Positions 36,445 through 55,869 of a stretch of DNA of 64,000 bases are shown here, one piece after another. The notes beneath the pieces are model-generated. The model searched no databases. It had not been told where the DNA came from and saw nothing but the letters and a program-made list of their open reading frames with translations. The translations under genes and the position numbers were made by a program. Origin of the DNA: an uncultured delta proteobacterium (lineage in GTDB: Bacteria; Myxococcota_A; Polyangia; Polyangiales; Houyiibacteriaceae); contig CAVOVB010000001.1 in the NCBI GenBank assembly GCA_963699755.1, positions 960,001 through 1,024,000 of the forward strand. Reading direction: 5' to 3'. The stretch's first letter is position 1, and the number at the start of each line of letters is the position of its first letter.

Positions 36445-36520
<76 letters not shown>

Positions 36521-44032: not shown

Positions 44033-44686
44033 TCACCAATCCAAGAGCGCAACGAGGATGCCGGTCGCCACGATCAGCGCGCCCGCCATGCTGTCGCCAT
44101 AGTGTTCGATCCACTCGCCTTTGAACAGTCGCGCGCCAGAGTGGGCCAAGGCAACCAAGGCGACCATCGCGCCAACGGTAGCAACCTCATACGCGACGAC
44201 GATCGACGCCGTCTCCACGCTGGACAGCGGAGCCGCCGCAAACAAGATTGGAATCACGGCGACGCAAGGGTCGGCACAGTAGATCAAGAAGAGCGACCAA
44301 GTCGAGGCGCGTGACGCGTCGTGGACGTGGTCGTAGTGATGATGATGGTGACCGTGGAGCCTGTGGGCGAACGCGCCGCGAAGACCCCAGATCGCATAGG
44401 CGACGCCGAAGCCAATCAAGAGCAAACCCGCAACCGATACCATGCGCTCGCCGAACGACTGAAAGAGCTGCGCCCCGAACATCAGCGCGAGCAAGCCCAG
44501 CAGGACGGACACCGTCACGTGACCGAGCCCGCAGATGAAGGCGACCCGGGCTGCCCTTGCTCTGGACCAGTTTCGCGCCCGGGCCACGGCAGCGATCGGA
44601 ACCCAGTGATCGGGGGCCAAAGAGTGCAATGATCCTATGGTGATGGCCCCGGTGGCCAGGGATAGGAAAAGGCTAGTGCTGCTCAT
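44033..44686 (-). CDS. Nickel/cobalt transporter-like membrane protein (NiCoT/UreH/RcnA-related)
   Basis: HSLAPDH, GLGH, His-rich loop HGHHHHHYDHVH, PC motif; overlaps the hypB stop. Confidence 0.75.
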   Translation of the reverse strand: MSSTSLFLSLATGAITIGSLHSLAPDHWVPIAAVARARNWSRARAARVAFICGLGHVTVSVLLGLLALMFGAQLFQSFGERMVSVAGLLLIGFGVAYAIWGLRGAFAHRLHGHHHHHYDHVHDASRASTWSLFLIYCADPCVAVIPILFAAAPLSSVETASIVVAYEVATVGAMVALVALAHSGARLFKGEWIEHYGDSMAGALIVATGILVALLDW

Positions 44687-45431
44687 GCTGCGATCCCTGT
44701 GGGTGCCCGTGATGGTGATGGTGATGCGTTTCCGCCGGCCGGGCCAACGCATCTGGACGTCGCTCTTCCAGCCAGTGCAGCCATGTGTCGATTCCCTCAC
44801 CGGTTTTTGCCGAGACCTTGAGCATCTTGGCTCCTGGCATCACGCGGGCGAGCGCGTCTTCGACTGCGTCGACGTCGAAATCCAAATGCGGAATCAAATC
44901 GACTTTGGTGAGCAACACCAGATCCGCTTTTTGAAACATGACGGGATACTTGAGCGGCTTGTCTTCGCCTTCGGTGACCGAGAGTGTCACCACGTTGGCG
45001 GCTTGGCCGAGATCGTAGATCGCGGGGCAAACCAAGTTGCCGACGTTCTCGATGAAAAAGATGTCGCGGTCGCTCGACGGGAAGTGATGCAGTGCGTGGT
45101 GTACCAGCCGCGCATCGAGATGGCAGGCAGACCCCGTAGTGATCGTAGACGAAACGATGCCCGCAGCATTGAGGCGATCGGCGTCTCGCTCGGTTGCTAG
45201 GTCACCGCTAACCGCGCCTAGCTTGAGGCGGCCCGCTGCCGCCTTGGAGGTAGCCTCCAAAACCGCGGTTTTCCCGGCTCCGGGAGAGCCCATCAGATTG
45301 ATCGCCAACACCCCTAAGCCCTCGAAATGATTCCTATTATGGCCCGCCTGAGCGTCGTTGTCGGAGAGGATTCTCTCCTGCACCTCGATCGGTACGATCT
45401 CCGGGTCACCGCATCCGCAGGTTTCACACAT
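44673..45431 (-). CDS. hypB: Hydrogenase nickel incorporation GTPase HypB
   Basis: MCETCGC, GSPGAGKT, CHLDA, ENVGNLVCPA, TKVD, His-rich tail. Confidence 0.95.
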   Translation of the reverse strand: MCETCGCGDPEIVPIEVQERILSDNDAQAGHNRNHFEGLGVLAINLMGSPGAGKTAVLEATSKAAAGRLKLGAVSGDLATERDADRLNAAGIVSSTITTGSACHLDARLVHHALHHFPSSDRDIFFIENVGNLVCPAIYDLGQAANVVTLSVTEGEDKPLKYPVMFQKADLVLLTKVDLIPHLDFDVDAVEDALARVMPGAKMLKVSAKTGEGIDTWLHWLEERRPDALARPAETHHHHHHGHPQGSQHEQH

Positions 45432-45771
45432 CGGGGGCCTCCATTTCAATTCGTTCCAAGATGATCTCGTCGCCCTGAATCATGCGCGCGGGTCGCCCGC
45501 AGTCATCGCAACGCAGGATCGCTCCGCGCGCAACGCTTCGCTCACACGAGGGACAGGCCCAAGCCGCAGCAACCGTATCGATCGCCAGCTCGGCGCCTTC
45601 ACAAATCGTGCGCTCGCGAAAAGTGTCGAACGCGGTCTTCAAGAGGTCGAGCTCGACTCCAGACAGCTCGCCGATCTTCACGTACAATCTGTGAACCCGC
45701 GAACCTCCGTGCAGGGCAGCTTCTTGTTGCACACGGTCGATCAGAGAAGCGATGATGGAGTACTCGTGCAT
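45424..45771 (-). CDS. hypA: Hydrogenase nickel metallochaperone HypA
   Basis: MHEYSI, GELSGVE, CPSC...CDDC. Confidence 0.94.
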   Translation of the reverse strand: MHEYSIIASLIDRVQQEAALHGGSRVHRLYVKIGELSGVELDLLKTAFDTFRERTICEGAELAIDTVAAAWACPSCERSVARGAILRCDDCGRPARMIQGDEIILERIEMEAPDV

Positions 45772-45774
45772 CTG

Positions 45775-46617
45775 TCAGTCGCTCTCGAACTCCGGTGAGC
45801 GCTTGTCGAAAAAGGCCGCCAGGCCTTCTGCGAAGTTGGGACCGTTGGCGATTCGCGCGAGCTCCGTCAGCTCAGCATCGAGATGAACGTCGAGACGATC
45901 CATGCCCGCCGCTTGATTGAGAAGGCTCTTTGCGACCCCGACCGCGCCGGTGGGCAAATCGGCGAGCTCCCGAGCGATTCGCGTCGCCTCCGCATCGAGC
46001 GAACTAGCCGGAATGACGCGGTTAATTAGACCCCATTCCAGGGCCTCCCGCGCAGTCAGACGCGGGTTGAGGAGCACCAGCTCGAGCGCTTTCCGAAGGC
46101 CGAGCAGGCGGGGAAGGAAGAAGGTCGAGCTTTCCGCACCCGTGAGCCCAGTTTTGAAGTATGCCCACTCGAACCAGGCGCGCTCCGAAGCAACGACGAG
46201 GTCGCAACTCATCGCAATTCCAAACCCCCCTGCTGCGGCTGGCCCGTCGACCACTGCGATGAACGGTTTCGGGGCGCGCCGAATCTCCGAGATGGTGCTA
46301 TGGATGTACTCGAGAATCTGTTTGAAGATTTCCCCATAGCCTGCGTCTGGCGTGCGGGTCTTTGGCTGCAGGTACCCGAGGTCTTCTCGATCGCCGCCGT
46401 CGCGGATGTACTTCAGGTCGGCGCCACTGCAGAACACGCCGCCCTCGCCTCGAATGACCACCGCGCGCACGTCGCGATCGCGCGCGAGCTGCAGACCTGC
46501 TCTTCGGAAGTCCTGAGCGGTCTCGATGTCGAGCGAGTTCAAACGTTCGCGGCGTGCGATGGTCAGGATGCCTACCGCTCCTTCTCGCTCGACTCGGATA
46601 TGTTTCATTTCGCCCAT
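45775..46617 (-). CDS. Stand-alone crotonase/enoyl-CoA-hydratase-fold protein inside the hyp operon (resembles HypX C-domain)
   Basis: FCSGADL, PFIAVVDGPAAAGG, AYFKTGLTGAESSTFFLPR; 3-nt gaps to both hypE and hypA. Confidence 0.88.
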   Translation of the reverse strand: MGEMKHIRVEREGAVGILTIARRERLNSLDIETAQDFRRAGLQLARDRDVRAVVIRGEGGVFCSGADLKYIRDGGDREDLGYLQPKTRTPDAGYGEIFKQILEYIHSTISEIRRAPKPFIAVVDGPAAAGGFGIAMSCDLVVASERAWFEWAYFKTGLTGAESSTFFLPRLLGLRKALELVLLNPRLTAREALEWGLINRVIPASSLDAEATRIARELADLPTGAVGVAKSLLNQAAGMDRLDVHLDAELTELARIANGPNFAEGLAAFFDKRSPEFESD

Positions 46618-46620
46618 CGC

Positions 46621-47658
46621 TCAGCAGATCCTCGGCAGAAGCTCGCCCTCGGCCTCGGCCAGCAAACGGCTTCCGAAGCCGGTGTCGAGAATCACAAATC
46701 CAGGCCGATCGGCCACGCATTCCCCGATAATTGCCGCGTTTCGGCCCAGCGGGTGCGAGCGAAGGGCGTCGAGCACTCCTGCTGCGACCTCGGGCCCTAG
46801 GCCGAAGATCGCCTTGCCTTCGTTCGCCGAGACGAGGGGGTCGATTCCGAGCAGCTCGCCCACAGCGCGAACCTCATCACGGAGCGGCACGGCGGTCTCG
46901 TCGATGATGATTCCGACGCCGCTCTTCTCGGCCATCTCGTGGAGCGCGCTCGAGAGCCCACCGCGCGTGGGATCCTTGAGAGCAACCACGCCCTCCCCGC
47001 CGACCTCGAGGCCTCGGCGAACCAGTGTGTGGATCGGCGCAACGTCGGACTCGAGCGTCGTCTCCAGCGCGAGCTCGTTGCGCGTTGCCATGATGGCCAG
47101 ACCGTGATCACCCATCGTTCCGGTGACCAGAATCTTGTCGCCCGGTCGCAGGCCGCAGTCCGAAACAAGGCGCGAGGTCAGCGCGACGCCGGTCGTGTTG
47201 AGGACCAAGCCGTCGAGCTCCCCGTGACCCATCACCTTCGTGTCGCCGGTGACGATCGTGGTGCCGGCCTCTTCGCAGGTTGCGCGGATCGACGCCCAAA
47301 TTCGGAGCAGATCCTCTTTTGGGAATCCGTCTTCGATAATCGCTGCGCAGGTCAATGCAAGGGGCTCGGTCGCTCCCATCATCGCGAGATCATTGACGGT
47401 TCCAGAGATCGCCAAGCGTCCGATGTCGCCGCCGGGAAACTCGATGGGCTGCACGACGTGCGAGTCGGTGGCGATGACGAGGTACTGATCGCCGATGCGA
47501 ATCGCCGCCCCGTCGTCCATGGCGCCGAGGCCGATGCCGTCTTCGACCTTACCGAGGCCCTTTGCAAAGACCTGCTCGATCAGCGCGCGCATCGCGCCAC
47601 CGCCGCTTCCGTACTTGAGCGTGATCCGTTCGTCGATGAAGCGGGCGTTGCGCGTCAT
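46621..47658 (-). CDS. hypE: Carbamoyl dehydratase HypE
   Basis: TDSHVV, FPGGDIG, GTVNDLAM, TGDTKV, DPTRGG, ANEG, C-terminal LPRIC. Confidence 0.95.
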   Translation of the reverse strand: MTRNARFIDERITLKYGSGGGAMRALIEQVFAKGLGKVEDGIGLGAMDDGAAIRIGDQYLVIATDSHVVQPIEFPGGDIGRLAISGTVNDLAMMGATEPLALTCAAIIEDGFPKEDLLRIWASIRATCEEAGTTIVTGDTKVMGHGELDGLVLNTTGVALTSRLVSDCGLRPGDKILVTGTMGDHGLAIMATRNELALETTLESDVAPIHTLVRRGLEVGGEGVVALKDPTRGGLSSALHEMAEKSGVGIIIDETAVPLRDEVRAVGELLGIDPLVSANEGKAIFGLGPEVAAGVLDALRSHPLGRNAAIIGECVADRPGFVILDTGFGSRLLAEAEGELLPRIC

Positions 47659-48803
47659 GCAGCGCCTCGCTTGATCGAACGAAGGTCCGGTCGACCGCCG
47701 TACTGATTCCAGATCTTGCAGGTGCCTTCCGCGCTCACCATGCAGGCGCCGACCGGCGTGTCGGGCGTGCATTCCTTCCCGAACAGTGGACAGTCGGATG
47801 GAGATGCGATCCCGGCCATGATGTCACCACACTGGCACTGCTGAACCAGCTTGGGCGGTGCGTAACTCCAGAGCGCCGACGCGTCGACGGTGAAGCGCTT
47901 TCTCGTGTCGTACTTCGCGAACTCATCGCGCAGGCGGAGGTTCCCGTTCGGGACATGGGCGATGCCCCGCCAGCGACCTCCGGTCGCACGGAACACCTGC
48001 CACAAGAGCTTCTGTGCATGGACGTTCCCTTCCCGAGTCACGCAGCGCGGAAATGCGTTTTCCACCCGGGGCTCACCGCTGTTGATGACCTCCATGAGCT
48101 TCACCAGGCCGGCCAAGACATCGAGTGGCTCAAACCCTGCGATCACCACCGGCAGGCCGTGACGCTCCACGAATTTCTCGAAGACGCCCGAGCCGGTGAT
48201 CGTGGCGGCGTGTCCGGCCGCGAGGAAGCCTTCGATTTTCGTCTCCGGCATTTCGGCCACAATCTCCATCACCGGAGGGATGTACTTGTGTGCCGAGAGC
48301 ACGGAGAAGTTGTCGGGCGGATCGTCGACCAAGACCGCTGCCGTTGCAACCGCGGTCGTCTCGAACCCCGAGGCAAAAAAGACGATGTCTTCGTCGAGCT
48401 CACGCGCGAGCTCGACGGCCTGCGTGACGCTGTACACCACGTCCACCTGTGCACCCTCGGCTTTTGCATCCGCGAGCGATTGAGACGTGCCGGGCACCCG
48501 CAGCATGTCACCGTACGACGCGATTCGCACACCCTGCTTTGCGAGCGCGACAGCTTCGTCGACCTCGGGCACGTCCGTCACGCAGACCGGGCATCCAGGT
48601 CCCATGATCACATGCAAATCCGGAGGAAAAGCGGCACGTAGGCCGAATTTCGCGATCGCCTGCTCATGGCTCCCGCAGACGTGCATCACCGACACCGGCG
48701 CATGATCGGCTTCATGCACCAGGCGATCGAGCGCTTCGCGAAGGCCGCGCGCGCGCGCCGGGTCGCGAAACTTGAGCTGGGCCACCTGGTCACTCGGATT
48801 CAT
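47655..48803 (-). CDS. hypD: Hydrogenase maturation scaffold HypD (divergent motifs)
   Basis: VCGSHE, GPGCPVC, GFETT, C-terminal Fe-S cysteines ending CMVSAEGTC. Confidence 0.93.
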   Translation of the reverse strand: MNPSDQVAQLKFRDPARARGLREALDRLVHEADHAPVSVMHVCGSHEQAIAKFGLRAAFPPDLHVIMGPGCPVCVTDVPEVDEAVALAKQGVRIASYGDMLRVPGTSQSLADAKAEGAQVDVVYSVTQAVELARELDEDIVFFASGFETTAVATAAVLVDDPPDNFSVLSAHKYIPPVMEIVAEMPETKIEGFLAAGHAATITGSGVFEKFVERHGLPVVIAGFEPLDVLAGLVKLMEVINSGEPRVENAFPRCVTREGNVHAQKLLWQVFRATGGRWRGIAHVPNGNLRLRDEFAKYDTRKRFTVDASALWSYAPPKLVQQCQCGDIMAGIASPSDCPLFGKECTPDTPVGACMVSAEGTCKIWNQYGGRPDLRSIKRGAA

Positions 48804-49113
48804 GAGAGCTTCTCTTCGAGCGATCCGTTGCATCGGGCGCGGCGGCGATCTCTCCACGAACATCTGCCGCCATCAAATCCTGCTCGTCGGCCAAGCGCAG
48901 AAGCTCGTCGTACAAGGCCAAGGTCTCGGCTGCCTCCTCCGGTGGAATCCGCCGAATCGCAAAGCCCACGTGATTCAAGATGAAGTCCCCGGGATCCACC
49001 GGCGCATCACAGACCTCCAGGCGCACTTGTTTCCTCACGCCCCAAAAATCGACGGTCGCGATCTGGTTCTCGCGGTCGACTTCGACCACCTTGCCGGGAA
49101 CACCTAAGCACAT
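48790..49113 (-). CDS. hypC: Hydrogenase chaperone HypC
   Basis: MCLGVPG...GDFILNHVGFAI. Confidence 0.94.
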   Translation of the reverse strand: MCLGVPGKVVEVDRENQIATVDFWGVRKQVRLEVCDAPVDPGDFILNHVGFAIRRIPPEEAAETLALYDELLRLADEQDLMAADVRGEIAAAPDATDRSKRSSHESE

Positions 49114-49132: not shown

Positions 49133-51409
49133 TCAACCTTTGTCTCCCAGAATGGCGTCCGCGATCAAGGCCTGACCGAGGGCGATTCCGCCGTCGCCCG
49201 GTGGAACTTGGCTGTGCCGTAACACCCTGGTTTTATTGGATATTTTTCTCTCAATTCCGGCGGCCAGCCAGGCGTTTTGGAAAACACCGCCCGTCAACGC
49301 CACGGGTAGCTCCCCCCGTTCTGCCAGAAGCGCCTCCAGCAGCGCAACCGTGACCGCCACGAGCGCGTTGTGAAAGCGCGCCGAAACCTGTCCGGTAGGC
49401 AGTTCGGCCCGCAGATCGTCCACAGCAGCACGCACCGTCGGCCGGAGGTCAACCTCCCAGGGTGCGCGCGCTCGGTCGATCTCGAACGGATATGCGTCCA
49501 CGACCGATTCGTCTGCGACCTGGTCCCACGCGATCGCAACCTGACCTTCGTACGTGGCCCGCGTCCGGCCGAGCGCCAGCGCGCCAAAGCCGTCGAAGTA
49601 ACGTCCGACTCCTCGTGCTTGCGGCGCATTGAGCTCGCGTTCGATCATTTGCTTCACCAAGCGAATCGATTTCGGGTCTACGTCGCCCAAGAGCGCAATC
49701 GAGTCCCTCGATGGCGCGCCGTCGTAAGCGTCGTGCAAGAGCGCGTAGCCGATTCTCCAAACCTCGCGCATTGCAAGATCGCCTCCAGCCAAGCGGAGCG
49801 GCCGAAACGTCGCCAAGCGTTCATATCGACGCGCAGAACAAAGCAAAAACTCCCCGCCCCAGGCCGTTCCATCCTCGCCAAAGCCCGTGCCATCGTAGGC
49901 CACGCCGAGGACGGGCCCCTGCAGGCGATGCTCGGCCATCAGGCTCACGACGTGTGCGTGGTGATGCTGAACGCCGACCAGGGTGACATCATCACGCGCG
50001 TTCGCGTAGCGTGTCGACAAGTACCCCGGGTGCAAATCATGTGCAACGACGTCTGGATGGATCGAGAGGATCGTCTGCATTCGCTCGATCGCTTCTTCGA
50101 AAAAATCAAGCGCAGCGACGGTCTCGAGGTCCCCGATGTGCGGTCCGAAGTACGCGGTGTCGCCCATCGCAATGCAAAACGTGTTCTTCAAGTGCGCACC
50201 GCAGGCGAGGATGGGACGCGCCACCCGACGCGATAAATAGAAGGGCCTTGGAACAAAGCCCCGCGACCGGCGCATGATGGTCGGTGTCCCGCCGATCACT
50301 CGGCCTACCGAGTCGTCGCAGCGCATCGCAATCTTTCGATCGTGGAGCAAGATCGCATCCGCAATCCCTTCGAGACGATGCCGGGCTTCGTCGTTTTCGT
50401 AGCAAATGGGCTCGTCGGACGTGTTGGCCGAGGTCATTACGAGAGGCCGCTTCGCGGCCGCGAGAAGCAGGTGGTGGAGTGGGGTATAGGGTAAGAACAG
50501 CCCAACAAGCGAAGTATCGGGGCTGACCTCGCCGGCTAGACCAGCGCCTGGGCGCCTTCGCAGCAGGACCACCGGCCGCTCCGCCGCCGTGAGAAGCGCC
50601 TCTTCCTGGGCACCGATCTCTGCAAGTGCCTGTGCGGCGGCGAGGCTCCCCACCATGACGGCAAATGGCTTCTCGTCACGATGCTTGCGTTCCCTCAGAC
50701 GACGAACAGCTGCTCCGTTGGTTGCATCACATGCGAGATGAAATCCCCCCAAGCCTTTGACCGCCACCACTCCGCCGCGAGACAAGCGCTCCGCTGCGTC
50801 TGCGAGCGCATCGACCTCGGATGCGGGGTGACCATCGAGTCGATCAAAGCTGAGCGTAGGCCCACATCGTGGACAGGCATTGGGCTGTGCGTGAAAGCGT
50901 CGGTCCTCGGCGTCGTTGTACTCCGCCTGGCACGCCTCGCACATGACGAACCCCGACATCGTCGTTGCTGCGCGATCGTACGGAATGCCCGTGGCAATCG
51001 TGAAGCGAGGCCCGCAGGCCGTGCAGTTCGTAAAGGCATATCCAAATCGACGGTCGTGACGATCCAACACCTCCCTCGTGCAGTCGTCGCAGGTCGCGAG
51101 GTCCGGCGGGATGGACAGGGCCTTCTGACCGTCGGCATCGCTCGATACGATCACGAAGGCATCGAGGCGCTCGTCTGGAATCGTCGTCTCCCGGAGCTCT
51201 ACGATCTCTGCTGCGGCCAAGGTATCTCTTCGTAATTCCTCCATAAATCGGCCCAAAACAGCTTTGCTTGCGAAGGCTTCGATCGTCACGCCCCCGGGGT
51301 CGTTTCGCACTCTTCCGACGACGCCCACGCGACGCGCCAGTCGGTAGACCCAGGGCCGAAAACCAACCCCTTGCACGGTCCCTCGAATCTCGATGCGATG
51401 CCCTGGCAT
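49133..51409 (-). CDS. hypF: Carbamoyltransferase HypF
   Basis: GTVQGVGFRP acylphosphatase domain, CxxC zinc fingers, KGLGGFHL, QHHHAH, GDGGIALGQ. Confidence 0.96.
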   Translation of the reverse strand: MPGHRIEIRGTVQGVGFRPWVYRLARRVGVVGRVRNDPGGVTIEAFASKAVLGRFMEELRRDTLAAAEIVELRETTIPDERLDAFVIVSSDADGQKALSIPPDLATCDDCTREVLDRHDRRFGYAFTNCTACGPRFTIATGIPYDRAATTMSGFVMCEACQAEYNDAEDRRFHAQPNACPRCGPTLSFDRLDGHPASEVDALADAAERLSRGGVVAVKGLGGFHLACDATNGAAVRRLRERKHRDEKPFAVMVGSLAAAQALAEIGAQEEALLTAAERPVVLLRRRPGAGLAGEVSPDTSLVGLFLPYTPLHHLLLAAAKRPLVMTSANTSDEPICYENDEARHRLEGIADAILLHDRKIAMRCDDSVGRVIGGTPTIMRRSRGFVPRPFYLSRRVARPILACGAHLKNTFCIAMGDTAYFGPHIGDLETVAALDFFEEAIERMQTILSIHPDVVAHDLHPGYLSTRYANARDDVTLVGVQHHHAHVVSLMAEHRLQGPVLGVAYDGTGFGEDGTAWGGEFLLCSARRYERLATFRPLRLAGGDLAMREVWRIGYALLHDAYDGAPSRDSIALLGDVDPKSIRLVKQMIERELNAPQARGVGRYFDGFGALALGRTRATYEGQVAIAWDQVADESVVDAYPFEIDRARAPWEVDLRPTVRAAVDDLRAELPTGQVSARFHNALVAVTVALLEALLAERGELPVALTGGVFQNAWLAAGIERKISNKTRVLRHSQVPPGDGGIALGQALIADAILGDKG

Positions 51410-51807
51410 TACGGTCCGTCCTCAGCGACGCTGAGAACGTAGGCGATGAGGTCCCACTTCTGTCCATCGCTCAGCGTCGGCCAGGCCGGCATCGAAGTAC
51501 CGCGCTCACCTTCGCTCAAGACCTCAAAGACCGCGATCGCAGTCGTGTTCGATCGCCATTCGCTGCTGCCAAAGTTCACCGGCTTCCCGGACAGCGCGTT
51601 ACTCCGCACGCCGTTTCCGTCCGCCCGATCGCCATGGCAGAGCGCACACTTCTCTCTGAAAAGCGCCTTTCCGCGCGCGCGCGCTTCGTCCGACGAAAGT
51701 TGGGCTACGGGGACCTCGACCTTGTCGTAGTCGACGGCGGACGATCCGGCTTTGCCGCTACACCCCAAGAGTGCGAGCGACATGAGCAGTGCTCCCATGG
51801 CCTTCAT
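51409..51807 (-). CDS. Monoheme cytochrome c lipoprotein
   Basis: Lipobox LLGC, CALCH, distal Met in GTSMPAW. Confidence 0.85.
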   Translation of the reverse strand: MKAMGALLMSLALLGCSGKAGSSAVDYDKVEVPVAQLSSDEARARGKALFREKCALCHGDRADGNGVRSNALSGKPVNFGSSEWRSNTTAIAVFEVLSEGERGTSMPAWPTLSDGQKWDLIAYVLSVAEDGP

Positions 51808-52306
51808 CGCGACTCTCCGTAGATCGGACCGGTGGATACCCGAGTGACCTGAGCTCTTCGACCACGCGCTCGACGAGCTCGGGAATGCTTGCCTGGACAG
51901 CGGGCGTTCGTTCGAGCCCGAGCTCGATCGAGTCCGGCACCACGCCCAGAATCAGCACCCTGTCCGGATACCGATCGAGCAGGCTCGCCCCTGCGAGGAG
52001 GTCCGCGACCCCAATTTGATGCGGCGAAAGGCGCTCGTAGACCGCCGGAGCCACCTCTTCGCCTTCGATCCGAACCTGCGTTCCGGGCGGCCCGTCGGCC
52101 GCGATCGCATCGACCAGGATCACCTGATCGGCGCTATCGACCAGCGGCAAGAGCGAGAGACCGAGCGTGCCGCCGTCCACGACCATGACGCCCTCGGGAA
52201 ACTCATACTCGCGAATGAGCTTGTGGATCGCGGCAATCCCCGCTCCGTCGTCTGTGCAGACGACATTGCCGAGCCCCAGGATGAGGACCGGCGTGCGGTT
52301 AGTCAT
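51758..52306 (-). CDS. Hydrogenase maturation endopeptidase (HyaD/HybD family)
   Basis: LGLGNVVCTDDGAG, VDGGTLG, LVDAI, SPHQ. Confidence 0.92.
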   Translation of the reverse strand: MTNRTPVLILGLGNVVCTDDGAGIAAIHKLIREYEFPEGVMVVDGGTLGLSLLPLVDSADQVILVDAIAADGPPGTQVRIEGEEVAPAVYERLSPHQIGVADLLAGASLLDRYPDRVLILGVVPDSIELGLERTPAVQASIPELVERVVEELRSLGYPPVRSTESRDEGHGSTAHVARTLGV

Positions 52307-53039
52307 CCCGGTTGCGCCAGCTCTTGGGGAGGAACTTGTAGCCGCTGAACAAAGAGTCGATGAGGCCCATCCCTTCGACGCGAGATACGAGCATCGCACT
52401 CCAGATATGGTGCGCCACGAAGCCGAGGAGGAACCACATCGCGATGTGGTGAATCCAACGTGCGGTCTGCGCGCCGCCCAAGATCGGAAGCAGGAACCCC
52501 CAGAACTCCATGTAACCGGTCGCGCTCACCGAATAAAGAGCGAGCCCCGTGAGGATCAGCGTGATGTAGATCGCGAACACGAGCAGGTACGTCATGCCCG
52601 CCAATGGGTTGTGACCGACGTTGAGCGGTGGCTCTTTGCTGACGAAGGAGTAGAACTTCAGCATCCTGAAGACATCCCCACGGCGCCGCTTGCCCACGGG
52701 CACGAATTGATGCCAGCGCGCGTAGTACGAACCCACGAACATCCAGGCGATGCGCGACGCGACCGCAAGCGCAAAGACGATGGCCGTGTAGAAGTGGACG
52801 ACCTTCACCGTTGCCATCACGAAGTGTTCGCTTCCTGGTTGCGCTGGGATCAGATACGGATTGCCGATGTAGATCCCGGTGATCGCCAGGATGAACACAG
52901 AGACCATGATGAGCCAGTGGGTCGTTCGGACCAAAAGGTCCCAGACGTAGACTCGCTCGATGCCGTGTACGTCGTGCCGACGGGGGCTCACCTGGGGACG
53001 AGCCCCTCCCTTTACCGCGGCCGTCGTCGGGGGAGTCAT
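52299..53039 (-). CDS. Ni/Fe-hydrogenase b-type cytochrome subunit
   Basis: YVWDLLVRTTHW, VHFY, GHNPLA, RWIHH; 4 TM helices. Confidence 0.93.
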   Translation of the reverse strand: MTPPTTAAVKGGARPQVSPRRHDVHGIERVYVWDLLVRTTHWLIMVSVFILAITGIYIGNPYLIPAQPGSEHFVMATVKVVHFYTAIVFALAVASRIAWMFVGSYYARWHQFVPVGKRRRGDVFRMLKFYSFVSKEPPLNVGHNPLAGMTYLLVFAIYITLILTGLALYSVSATGYMEFWGFLLPILGGAQTARWIHHIAMWFLLGFVAHHIWSAMLVSRVEGMGLIDSLFSGYKFLPKSWRNRDD

Positions 53040-54742
53040 CGCACCTTCACGCGAGTGATCTCGCGCCCTCCAGGTTCGACGACGTGCACACCGCAGGCCA
53101 TGCACGGGTCGAAGGAATGGACCGTCCTCAGGATTTCAATTGGCTGCTCCGGATCGGCGACCGGGGTCCCGACCAAGGCTGCCTCGTAGGGCCCCGGCGC
53201 ATCGCCGGAATCCCGTGGGCCGGCGTTCCAGGTGCTCGGAACCACGCATTGATACCGCTCGATCTTCCCATCTTTTACGTGGACCCAGTGCCCAAGCGAG
53301 CCGCGGGGGGCTTCGTGGAAGCCGGCTCCCATCGAATCGGCGGGCCAGGTCTCCGGCTCCCACTTGCTGTTGTCGTGGATGCGAAGCTCGCCGTTTCCCA
53401 TGTTGGTGGCAAGCTCGTCGACCCAGTCGCCGATCTTGTCGACCAGGATCTGCGTCTCGATGCCACGTGCCGCGACCCGGCCGAGCGTCGAGAACAAGGC
53501 CGCGGGTCCGACATCGAGCGTCTTTAGGACGTGGTTGACTAGGCCTTGGACCTGCTCGTGACCCTGAACGTAGTTGACCAGCATGCGCGACAAGGGACCG
53601 ACTTCCATCGGCACTCCGTCGTAGCGGGGCGACTTGAGCCAGGAGTACTTCTTCGACGTGTCGAGGCGTTCGAAGGGCGGCTTCGGGCCCGTGTAGTTCG
53701 GCTTGGTTTCGCCCGCCGACGGGTGCAGCGCTTGGTCCTCGCCGCCCGCGTAGTCGTACCAGGAGTGCGTGATCTGCTCGGTGATCTTCGAAGGGTCGAA
53801 CTCTTCGACCTTCGAGAGGTCGCGACCCCTGATGATGCCAGACTTGATGAAGTGTTCCGGTTTCGCTTCGTCGTCGAGCGGGTACTCGCCGTACACCATG
53901 TAGTTGCCGACGCCCGCGCCGTAGCCGGCCCAGTCTTTGTAGAACGAGGCGACCGCGAGAAGGTCCGGGATGTAGACCTTGCTCACGAACTCCTGCGCGC
54001 CGGCGATCAGCTTCTTGAACTCCGCGATGGTGTGGATGTTGAGCGAAGCCTGCTTGTCCGGGTCGACCGGAGTGGCCATCCCGCCGACGAGGAAGCTCTG
54101 CAGATGGGGGTTCTTGCCGCCCAAGATGGCGTGCATCTTGATGAACTCACGCTGCCAATCGAGCGCTTCGAGATAGTGGGCGACCGCCATCAGGTTCGCG
54201 GCTGGTGGTAGCTTGTAGGCCGGGTGGCCCCAGTACGCGTTGGCAAACGGCCCGAGCTGGCCTCGCTCGACCAGCCCTTTGACACGGTCTTGAATGACCT
54301 TGAAGTACGTGGCGCTCGACTTCCCCCAGTCCGAGATCGACTGGGCAAGCGCCGCGGTTTCCTTCGGGTCGGCCTCGAGCGCCGACACGATGTCGACCCA
54401 GTCGAGCGCGTGCAGGTGATAGAAGTGGATCACGTGGTCTTGGATGCACTGGGACGCGATGATCAGGTTTCGGAGGATCCGTGCATTGGGTGGCGGCTTC
54501 GCGCCGATCGCGTCCTCGACGGCGCGAATCGAAGCGATGGCGTGCACCGTCGTGCAGACGCCGCAGATGCGCTGGGTAAAGGCCCACGCATCACGCGGAT
54601 CGCGGCCTTGCAAAATGATCTCGATACCTCGGAACATGGTCGAAGAAGACCATGCATCGGAGACCTGACCTCCCTCGATTTCCGCCTCGATGCGCAAGTG
54701 GCCTTCGATGCGGGTGACCGGGTCGACAACGATATGAGTCAT
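53036..54742 (-). CDS. Group 1 [NiFe]-hydrogenase large subunit (probably group 1f)
   Basis: DPVTRIEGH, L1 FTQRICGVCTTVH, L2 SFDPCMACGVH plus cleavable C-terminal tail. Confidence 0.96.
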   Translation of the reverse strand: MTHIVVDPVTRIEGHLRIEAEIEGGQVSDAWSSSTMFRGIEIILQGRDPRDAWAFTQRICGVCTTVHAIASIRAVEDAIGAKPPPNARILRNLIIASQCIQDHVIHFYHLHALDWVDIVSALEADPKETAALAQSISDWGKSSATYFKVIQDRVKGLVERGQLGPFANAYWGHPAYKLPPAANLMAVAHYLEALDWQREFIKMHAILGGKNPHLQSFLVGGMATPVDPDKQASLNIHTIAEFKKLIAGAQEFVSKVYIPDLLAVASFYKDWAGYGAGVGNYMVYGEYPLDDEAKPEHFIKSGIIRGRDLSKVEEFDPSKITEQITHSWYDYAGGEDQALHPSAGETKPNYTGPKPPFERLDTSKKYSWLKSPRYDGVPMEVGPLSRMLVNYVQGHEQVQGLVNHVLKTLDVGPAALFSTLGRVAARGIETQILVDKIGDWVDELATNMGNGELRIHDNSKWEPETWPADSMGAGFHEAPRGSLGHWVHVKDGKIERYQCVVPSTWNAGPRDSGDAPGPYEAALVGTPVADPEQPIEILRTVHSFDPCMACGVHVVEPGGREITRVKVR

Positions 54743-55869
54743 TCTGCGCCTCCTTCATCGGTCCGCGCGGGCGGGCCTTCGGGTGGGTGATCCGCGCCCG
54801 TTCCAACGAGCTTCTTTCCGAGGTGGACCAAGGTGTGCCCCGCAAACGCGGTGGTGACACCAATGGTCGCCCAGAAGCCGATCTTGTCGATGTTCGAGCC
54901 TTTGCCGAAGCCGGGGAAGCCTGGCAGGTGCGCGTAGAACGGCGTCATCTTGTCCCAGAAGTCCGGTTCGGCGCAGCCGATGCAGCCGTGGCCGCATGCG
55001 ATCGGCCAGCTCGTGTTGTCGTTCCAACCGACGTTCGGACAGTTCTGGAACGAAACAGGGCCCTTGCAGCCCATCTTGTAGAGGCAGTGGCCGTCGCGGT
55101 GGGCCTCGTCGCCCCATTGCTCGACGTACTGCCCGGTGTCGTAATGCGCGCGCCGCTCGCAGTTGTCGTGAATCGACTTACCGTAGGCAAAAAGCGGGCG
55201 ATTCAGCTTGTCGAGGGCTGGGAACCGACCGTAGGTCAGGAAGTAGACCAGCGTCGCGGTGAGATTCTGGGCGTTCACCGGACAGGCGGACAGATTGATG
55301 AGATTCTTCACGCCGGGCACGGCGTCAGACACACCGAGCGCGCCGGTCGGATTCGGCGACGCAGCGGGAATGCCGCCAAACGATGCGCAGGTTCCGACTG
55401 CAATCGTCGCCAGCGCGCCGCCGCACACCTCCTTGGCAATGTCGATCGCCGCCTTCCCGCCGACGGTGCAATACGCGCCGTTCGCGCCGGTTGGGATCGA
55501 GCCCTCGACGACCGCGAGGTATGCGCCCTTCTGATTCGCGACGACGTTGTGAAGGTTCTCCTCGGCCTGGTGACCGGCCGCCGCCATGATCACCTCGTGG
55601 TAATCGATCGAGATCAGATCGAGGATTACCTCGGCAGCGGTCGGCTTGCTCGCGCGGAGAAAGGATTCGGTGTTGCCTGCACAGTCCTGGAAGTTGAGCC
55701 AGACCAGGGTTGGCTTCGGCTTGTTCTCGATCGCGTCGGCGATCATCGCCGTCGCCCCTTTCGGCAAACCAAACATCACCGCCATCGCAGAGCAGAAGCC
55801 CATGAACTCGCGACGTGAAACGCCGCGTGCCTCTAACTCCCGCCGGAAGTCATTTCCCGGTTCATTCAT
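54739..55869 (-). CDS. [NiFe]-hydrogenase small subunit, Tat-exported and membrane-anchored
   Basis: SRREFMGFC Tat motif, QDCAGNTES, GTCASFGG, HDNCERR, CLYKMGCKGP, GCIGC, C-terminal TM helix; GAGGAGG SD. Confidence 0.95.
   Translation of the reverse strand: MNEPGNDFRRELEARGVSRREFMGFCSAMAVMFGLPKGATAMIADAIENKPKPTLVWLNFQDCAGNTESFLRASKPTAAEVILDLISIDYHEVIMAAAGHQAEENLHNVVANQKGAYLAVVEGSIPTGANGAYCTVGGKAAIDIAKEVCGGALATIAVGTCASFGGIPAASPNPTGALGVSDAVPGVKNLINLSACPVNAQNLTATLVYFLTYGRFPALDKLNRPLFAYGKSIHDNCERRAHYDTGQYVEQWGDEAHRDGHCLYKMGCKGPVSFQNCPNVGWNDNTSWPIACGHGCIGCAEPDFWDKMTPFYAHLPGFPGFGKGSNIDKIGFWATIGVTTAFAGHTLVHLGKKLVGTGADHPPEGPPARTDEGGAE

Follow-up and report, generated by a model that had tools for sequence, protein, structure and literature searches.

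The window analysed here, a 64,000-nucleotide stretch of contig CAVOVB010000001.1 from an uncultured delta proteobacterium, carries a [NiFe]-hydrogenase cluster on its minus strand. Its genes are arranged in the order small subunit, large subunit, cytochrome b, probable protease, cytochrome c, hypF, hypC, hypD, hypE, crotonase, hypA, hypB and probable nickel transporter. The hypE, hypD, hypC, hypF and hypB genes exceed their NCBIfam cut-offs, and one hydrogenase together with one hyp set matches the queries in the source genome. The features are the following:

54739..55869, minus strand: hydrogenase small subunit with the proximal motif C63-A-G-N66 (TIGR00391, over cut-off)
53036..54742, minus strand: large subunit of a group 1 [NiFe]-hydrogenase; nothing else in the genome matches this query
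52299..53039, minus strand: hydrogenase cytochrome b subunit (PF01292)
51758..52300, minus strand: probable hydrogenase maturation protease, which we take it to be from sequence and position
51409..51807, minus strand: small c-type cytochrome (PF13442, PF00034)
49133..51409, minus strand: hypF (TIGR00143)
48790..49113, minus strand: hypC (TIGR00074)
47655..48800, minus strand: hypD, the scaffold that would receive CO (TIGR00075)
46621..47724, minus strand: hypE (TIGR02124)
45775..46617, minus strand: hyp-linked crotonase of 280 aa, candidate formyl-CoA decarbonylase (open reading frame, PF00378, AlphaFold model)
46159..46161, minus strand: codon of Tyr153, which aligns with Y439 of C. necator HypX (Aquifex Y416)
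46132..46134, minus strand: codon of Glu162, which aligns with E449 of C. necator HypX (Aquifex E426); diagnostic residue of G-A-E
45424..45771, minus strand: hypA (TIGR00100, 87.1 bits, just under the cut-off of 88.1)
44673..45431, minus strand: hypB (TIGR00073)
44033..44683, minus strand: probable nickel transporter, a His-rich membrane protein (weak Pfam matches to DsbD_2 and NicO)

The initial annotation had placed an open reading frame for a 280-residue crotonase between hypE and hypA, and the coordinates bear this out: with the end of hypE at 46621 and the start of hypA at 45771, the gap is 3 nt on either side. A scan for promoters and terminators gave a result near chance. Several other traits of the cluster are shared with related loci. 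The small c-type cytochrome gene between the protease and hypF is retained in most related clusters, and the gene for the His-rich membrane protein comes after hypB in most relatives, while hypF is absent from the clusters L023 and L032. Residues 63-66 of the small subunit read C-A-G-N where C-x-x-C is usual for the proximal cluster, a motif common to 34 of 39 related loci. The best PDB match of the large subunit is 3myr; both this match and the C-A-G-N motif may hint at a group 1f [NiFe]-hydrogenase. Elsewhere in the window, a tRNA-Ala(CGC) gene lies at 36445-36520 on the minus strand.

The crotonase fold of the protein is evident from PF00378 (157 bits) and from an AlphaFold model with a pLDDT of 94.6. 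Its 25 best NCBIfam matches all fall under cut-off, with oxepin-CoA hydrolase first, PRK05981 among them and PaaG sixth (TIGR02280, 152.7 against a cut-off of 345.15), and the ESM Atlas returned just generic enoyl-CoA hydratase cluster names. The nearest proteins overall, at about 33-42% identity, are PaaG (1,2-epoxyphenylacetyl-CoA isomerase) and the A-Y/F...P-D-G crotonases (NF046063, PRK05981), which also lack both canonical hydratase glutamates. Unlike PaaG, the protein carries G-A-E instead of P-D-G and is encoded in a hyp context, not in one of phenylacetate catabolism. The other reference is HypX (or HoxX), an N10-formyl-THF decarbonylase known from C. necator pHG1, R. leguminosarum pRlvC and Aquifex aeolicus (PDB 6J0P). 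The crotonase resembles HypX in its position straight after hypE, in its fold, in a Tyr and a G-x-E in register, and in being accompanied by a formyltransferase at 26 of 80 loci. In contrast to HypX, it is a single domain with neither a fused formyltransferase (no PF00551) nor the HypX C-terminal tail, and the two share about 20% identity in a structural alignment. The model superposes on residues 274-544 of HypX (6j0p_A) with Z 30.5 and an rmsd of 2.5 over 254 residues; however, HypX ranks 17th to 29th among the crotonase structures matched, several ordinary hydratases being placed higher (top Z 35.1), and therefore the fold by itself does not single out HypX. Judged from its sequence, the crotonase falls outside HypX because it is not fused, and outside both PaaG and the hydratases because of its catalytic residues.

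The protein is a member of a tight family without a name that is distributed over Myxococcota, Acidobacteriota, Methylomirabilota and Binatota, and many of its members are labelled PaaG by JGI. In a genome scan that yielded at least 304 confirmed relatives, the best 80 (66-93% identity) were kept: 33 come from Myxococcota, 31 from Acidobacteriota, three from Rokubacteria/Methylomirabilota and one from Binatota, with 12 lacking an assignment; Myxococcota SG8-38 is among the nearest relatives. The claim that the gene is linked to hyp genes was borne out. For these best 80 of at least 304 matches, hypE lies upstream of the crotonase in all 80, directly so in 53. On the other side, hypA comes next in 68 but not in 10, and in two the contig ends. 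Many of the 80 are close kin, and therefore even samples were also drawn per phylum. Of the 251 genomes in the Myxococcota sample, 74 have hypD; 20 of these carry the crotonase, against 0 of the 177 hypD-less ones, and at all 20 loci the gene sits between hypE and hypA. It tracks one HypD clade: among 27 genomes with a HypD at least 57% identical to that of the source, 20 have the gene, as against 0 of 47 with a more distant one. The seven exceptions within this clade have hypE joined straight to hypA, so this operon type can exist without the crotonase. In the Acidobacteriota sample, eight of 301 genomes carry the gene, and all nine loci, the source genome included, lie among hyp genes. Altogether, none of the 80 + 20 + 9 loci was found outside a hyp cluster. 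Within the source genus the crotonase is kept in 11 of 13 sampled genomes; one genome of this genus (G534) lacks it and has a hyp set that is only distantly related.

Searches for HypX agree with the initial proposal of a stand-alone counterpart. HypX was found neither in the source genome nor in any of the 50 crotonase carriers searched (0/50), with the positive control recovered. In the Acidobacteriota sample, HypX was present in two of 301 genomes against eight for the crotonase, with no overlap between them, which at such counts is expected by chance.

The motif reported for the active site (GGFGI, and AY-FKTGLTGA-E-SSTFFLPR) and the lack of the canonical hydratase glutamates were both confirmed in the sequence. 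At what we take to be the positions of the two catalytic hydratase glutamates, family members have G133 (80/80) and Y153 (79/80), which separates them from true hydratases. The HypX motif given in the initial annotation agrees with C. necator HypX, the pHG1 protein having Y439 and E449. In PMC6802093, Aquifex HypX Y416 and E426 are described as candidate decarbonylation bases, and R. eutropha mutants in HypX Y439 and E449 as HypX-negative. In an hhalign profile alignment, Y153 pairs with Y439 and E162 with E449, HypX having one residue more; MAFFT agrees. The proposed match of Y153 and E162 with the catalytic Tyr and Glu of HypX thus stands in the alignment for both residues, but the Tyr carries little weight. 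Among the best 80 of at least 304 relatives, E162 is kept in 80 and Y153 in 79; one search pattern behind these relatives covered Y153, and none covered E162. Of 109 PaaG-like neighbours, 78 have the Tyr, which was accordingly rejected as a family marker, 103 have Asp at position 161 and one has Glu at 162, this single neighbour grouping with the crotonase family. Residue 161 is Ala in all 80 family members. The signal shared with HypX is therefore the switch from P-D-G to G-x-E. By alignment, this switch removes the catalytic Asp of PaaG, given as Asp136 of the T. thermophilus enzyme in PMC7497051. Three deeper relatives with about 40-53% identity (P0139, P0155 and P0138) retain the Glu in two cases (S-A-E, G-T-E) and lack it in one.

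A partner formyltransferase, whose existence had been predicted, is found in relatives. In 27 of the 80 loci there is a gap after hypE, and in 26 of these, all from Acidobacteriota, it holds a gene of 180-290 codons for a separate PurN-type formyltransferase that directly precedes the crotonase gene; two neighbouring genes thus encode both fold types of HypX. The partner exceeds the PF00551 cut-off in six of six cases tested. Its best NCBIfam family is PurN in five of six and it scores at PurN level in all six, PurU being the second-best family, and its N-x-H and downstream Asp are invariant, which fits the N10-formyl-THF formyltransferase superfamily. A structure model of one member has PurN as its best match (Z 22.8, rmsd 2.6, 197 aligned residues), with the HypX N-terminal part ranked 49-50 (Z 15). 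Like PurN (GAR transformylase) and PurU, it combines PF00551 with the N-x-H and Asp residues. Unlike PurN, it scores 57.5-85.3 bits in TIGR00639 against a cut-off of 150.1 (6/6), has its own C-terminal motif A-Y-A-x-x-x-E-W-M and always stands before a crotonase; it differs from the HypX N-terminal part in being a separate protein without the second N-terminal subdomain. A metagenome search from the partner side drew on the best 80 of 290 matches. All 60 loci that extend for 450 nt or more downstream have the crotonase as the next gene; over the full 80 loci the figure is 71, and the remaining nine end within 141 nt. In three loci (L103, L104 and L107) the order is hypD, formyltransferase, crotonase, hypE; since the two genes keep their order when placed before hypE, the pair moves as a unit. 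Among the long matches scanned, none showed a fusion of the crotonase with PF00551; these seem to be either double crotonases or read-throughs caused by frameshifts.

The association is nevertheless dispensable. The partner is missing from 54 of the 80 loci, and in whole-genome searches of 50 of these genomes one had a partner-family gene elsewhere (227 bits, near hypC), all others giving at most 92 bits. A FastTree of 79 crotonases shows eight changes in the partner label, at least five of them forced by well-supported branches, from which it follows that the crotonase can do without its partner. The 27th gap, in L049 (8208-9479), contains a transposase-like ORF of 423 residues at the place where L052 (9134-9704), 92-93% identical, has the partner; comparison of the two sequences thus appears to catch the loss of the partner in the act.

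The source genome belongs to the lineages without the partner. As had been stated, there is no formyltransferase in the window: the three PF00551 genes of the genome lie on contigs C2 and C3 and score as PurN, Fmt and PurU, and a whole-genome search found no gene of the partner family. The crotonase is still under strong purifying selection. Its median dN/dS is 0.063 (34 partner-less relatives, in pairs that share the window gene, with dS about 1.2), within the range of the hyp genes, as the neighbours give 0.042 for hypD (29 pairs), 0.051 for hypB (32), 0.073 for the large subunit (19), 0.093 for hypE (31), 0.100 for hypA (34) and 0.151 for hypF (22). Among possible origins of formyl-CoA, the source genome yielded no match over cut-off for oxc (oxalyl-CoA decarboxylase), none for frc (formyl-CoA transferase) among the three of four family III CoA-transferases scanned, and no fhs (formate-THF ligase). 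Its PFL-like gene is nearest HpsG: the glycyl radical enzyme at G000:C5:112169-114091 matches this sulfopropanediol dehydratase with 881 bits on a partial sequence, the cut-off being 1000. A ThDP enzyme at L219:1486-3237 (G000:C1) has 2-hydroxyacyl-CoA lyases among its top PDB matches and is 84-96% conserved in close relatives. Orthologues of this HACL-like protein were present in nine of 30 partner-less and in 0 of 20 partnered genomes, and PurU in 16 of 30 and 0 of 20, respectively, nine of the 30 having been called partner-less from the locus alone. PurU is absent from all nine partner-less genomes of Acidobacteriota and Methylomirabilota, so that it follows phylum; neither protein tracks partner loss, and both were rejected as the replacement source. 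No single replacement for the partner was found among the candidates examined. Another crotonase, of P-D-M type, begins no more than about 10 nt after purU in the source genome (L229:3611-5275, G000:C2).

The relation of the crotonase to HypX by descent was addressed with profiles and trees. In profile comparison, the family matches its PaaG-like neighbours with an E value of 2e-86 and HypX's C-terminal domain (HypX-C) with 1e-14, the neighbours themselves matching HypX-C with 1e-18. On the other hand, free maximum likelihood trees unite HypX-C with the family, with SH-aLRT support of 99 (60 rows), of 98 after removal of the motif columns (42 rows), and of 100/98 in a careful 30-row tree also lacking the motif; long branches and near-duplicates were left out of the smaller trees. 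The HypX branch exceeds four changes per site. Constraining HypX to group with other crotonases gained 14.9 log units over the 42-row quick tree (p-AU 0.77) and cost 4.95 log units against the 30-row tree (p-AU 0.27). The sequence trees thus lean towards kinship with HypX-C, but the AU tests do not reject the alternative. The idea of a literal split or half HypX is not supported, as the crotonase profile is nearer to the PaaG-like proteins and the partner nearer to PurN. Fission of HypX itself was rejected on the profile and fold comparisons that place the partner with PurN: the formyltransferase of the two-gene form is of a different type, which argues against a plain HypX split under either ancestry.

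Taken together, the hyp context, the partner linkage, the match of Y153 and E162 to HypX, the searches that found HypX in none of 50 carriers and the dN/dS of 0.063 lead us to infer, with a probability of roughly 70%, that the crotonase is a formyl-CoA decarbonylase that supplies the CO ligand of the [NiFe] site, HypX-like in action without being a member of HypX. In the proposed mechanism, the CoA site of the crotonase would bind formyl-CoA, and Glu162 would act as a base, with Tyr153 helping directly or via water, to convert formyl-CoA into CO and CoA. The CO would then be released for use in the Fe(CN)2CO unit, which is assembled on HypCD, encoded beside the crotonase. In many relatives, formyl transfer from N10-formyl-THF to CoA, the presumed acceptor, would fall to the adjoining PurN-type enzyme, so that partner and crotonase would form a two-protein counterpart of HypX. 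Since the partner gene is absent from the source lineage, formyl-CoA must there come from elsewhere in the cell: the housekeeping enzymes PurN, PurU or Fmt may make it as a side activity, or it may be the product of a ThDP lyase or of a family III CoA-transferase with formate as substrate. According to PMC12134894, about 10 nM CO outcompetes the endogenous precursor of the CO ligand, and a small side flux of formyl-CoA could therefore suffice. Several observations count against this decarbonylase reading: seven related hyp operons lack the crotonase, the partner is dispensable and no single replacement for it was found, and HypX holds CoA inside a two-domain cavity, an enclosure that a free crotonase does not have. 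A tie to oxic maturation is plausible given the five COX1-family matches in the source genome; however, five of five carriers and five of five non-carriers are positive, and COX1-family genes also accompany the related crotonase-less operons, so COX1 is uninformative on a link with oxygen.

Other explanations give the crotonase a different part in maturation. It may be an accessory that makes no CO, either a formyl-CoA hydrolase providing formate to HypCD together with a PurU-like partner, or a CoA-binding protein that regulates or protects the Hyp machinery. A single Glu suits thioester hydrolysis in other crotonases. PurU is the second-best family of the partner, and formate is listed as a possible CO precursor in PMC12134894. 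We regard such an accessory as unlikely, as the Glu is in the HypX register and not in that of PaaG, and a PurU-like partner would yield formate without need of a crotonase. The CO might also derive from another thioester or C1 carrier, such as oxalyl- or glyoxylyl-CoA, at least in the lineages without the formyltransferase, which would account for the 54 partner-less loci and for the dedicated formyl-CoA source not found in the source genome. This is quite unlikely: the active-site motif is identical with and without the partner (E162 in 80/80) and the near-identical L049 and L052 differ only in the partner, which suggests one substrate, and no conserved gene for an alternative donor was seen beside the crotonase.

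The remaining explanations deny the protein any role in maturation here. An ordinary PaaG-like or enoyl-CoA isomerase hitch-hiking in a horizontally moved hydrogenase cluster would explain the PaaG-like best profile and PDB sequence matches, the JGI naming and the absence of the gene from seven related operons. It is nonetheless very unlikely, given that the NCBIfam matches shown are all under cut-off (PaaG at 152.7 against 345), that the catalytic Asp of PaaG is absent, that every one of the 80 + 20 + 9 loci is in a hyp cluster and that coupling to a formyltransferase would be senseless for an isomerase. A relic that works only with the partner, and has been decaying since its loss, would agree with the genome-wide absence of the partner. 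Such a relic is scarcely credible in view of a crotonase intact in 80 of 80 relatives (best of at least 304) and kept both in 11 of 13 sampled genomes of the genus and across a partner-less clade of 44 rows; the dN/dS of 0.063 over 34 pairs largely refutes it.

The decarbonylase reading can be extended, more tentatively, to a second and widespread route to the CO ligand. Here, at somewhat less than even odds, a free-standing formyl-CoA decarbonylase would rely on general metabolism for its formyl-CoA and do without a formyltransferase of its own. If so, HypX would have arisen late, when such an enzyme was fused to a formyltransferase of the Fmt/FDH type, and the pairing with a PurN-type formyltransferase in the two-gene form would be independent of this. 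No description of a stand-alone or two-gene counterpart of HypX was found in the literature searched, which covered subscription journals thinly. The family offers a small soluble candidate enzyme and, occurring with and without the formyltransferase, a natural experiment; with it, decarbonylation could be measured separately from formyl transfer, something that the fused HypX precludes. The decarbonylase reading would also extend the enzymology of the CO ligand to soil and sediment phyla in which the gene is labelled enoyl-CoA hydratase or PaaG.

A further observation concerns HypD (47655-48800), whose best plasmid match is haloarchaeal (Natrarchaeobaculum, 60%, L081), against about 40% for bacterial plasmid HypD. 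The Natrarchaeobaculum operon has hypA straight after hypE and no crotonase, and the pattern of HypD matches suggests a mobile hyp clade that spans domains.
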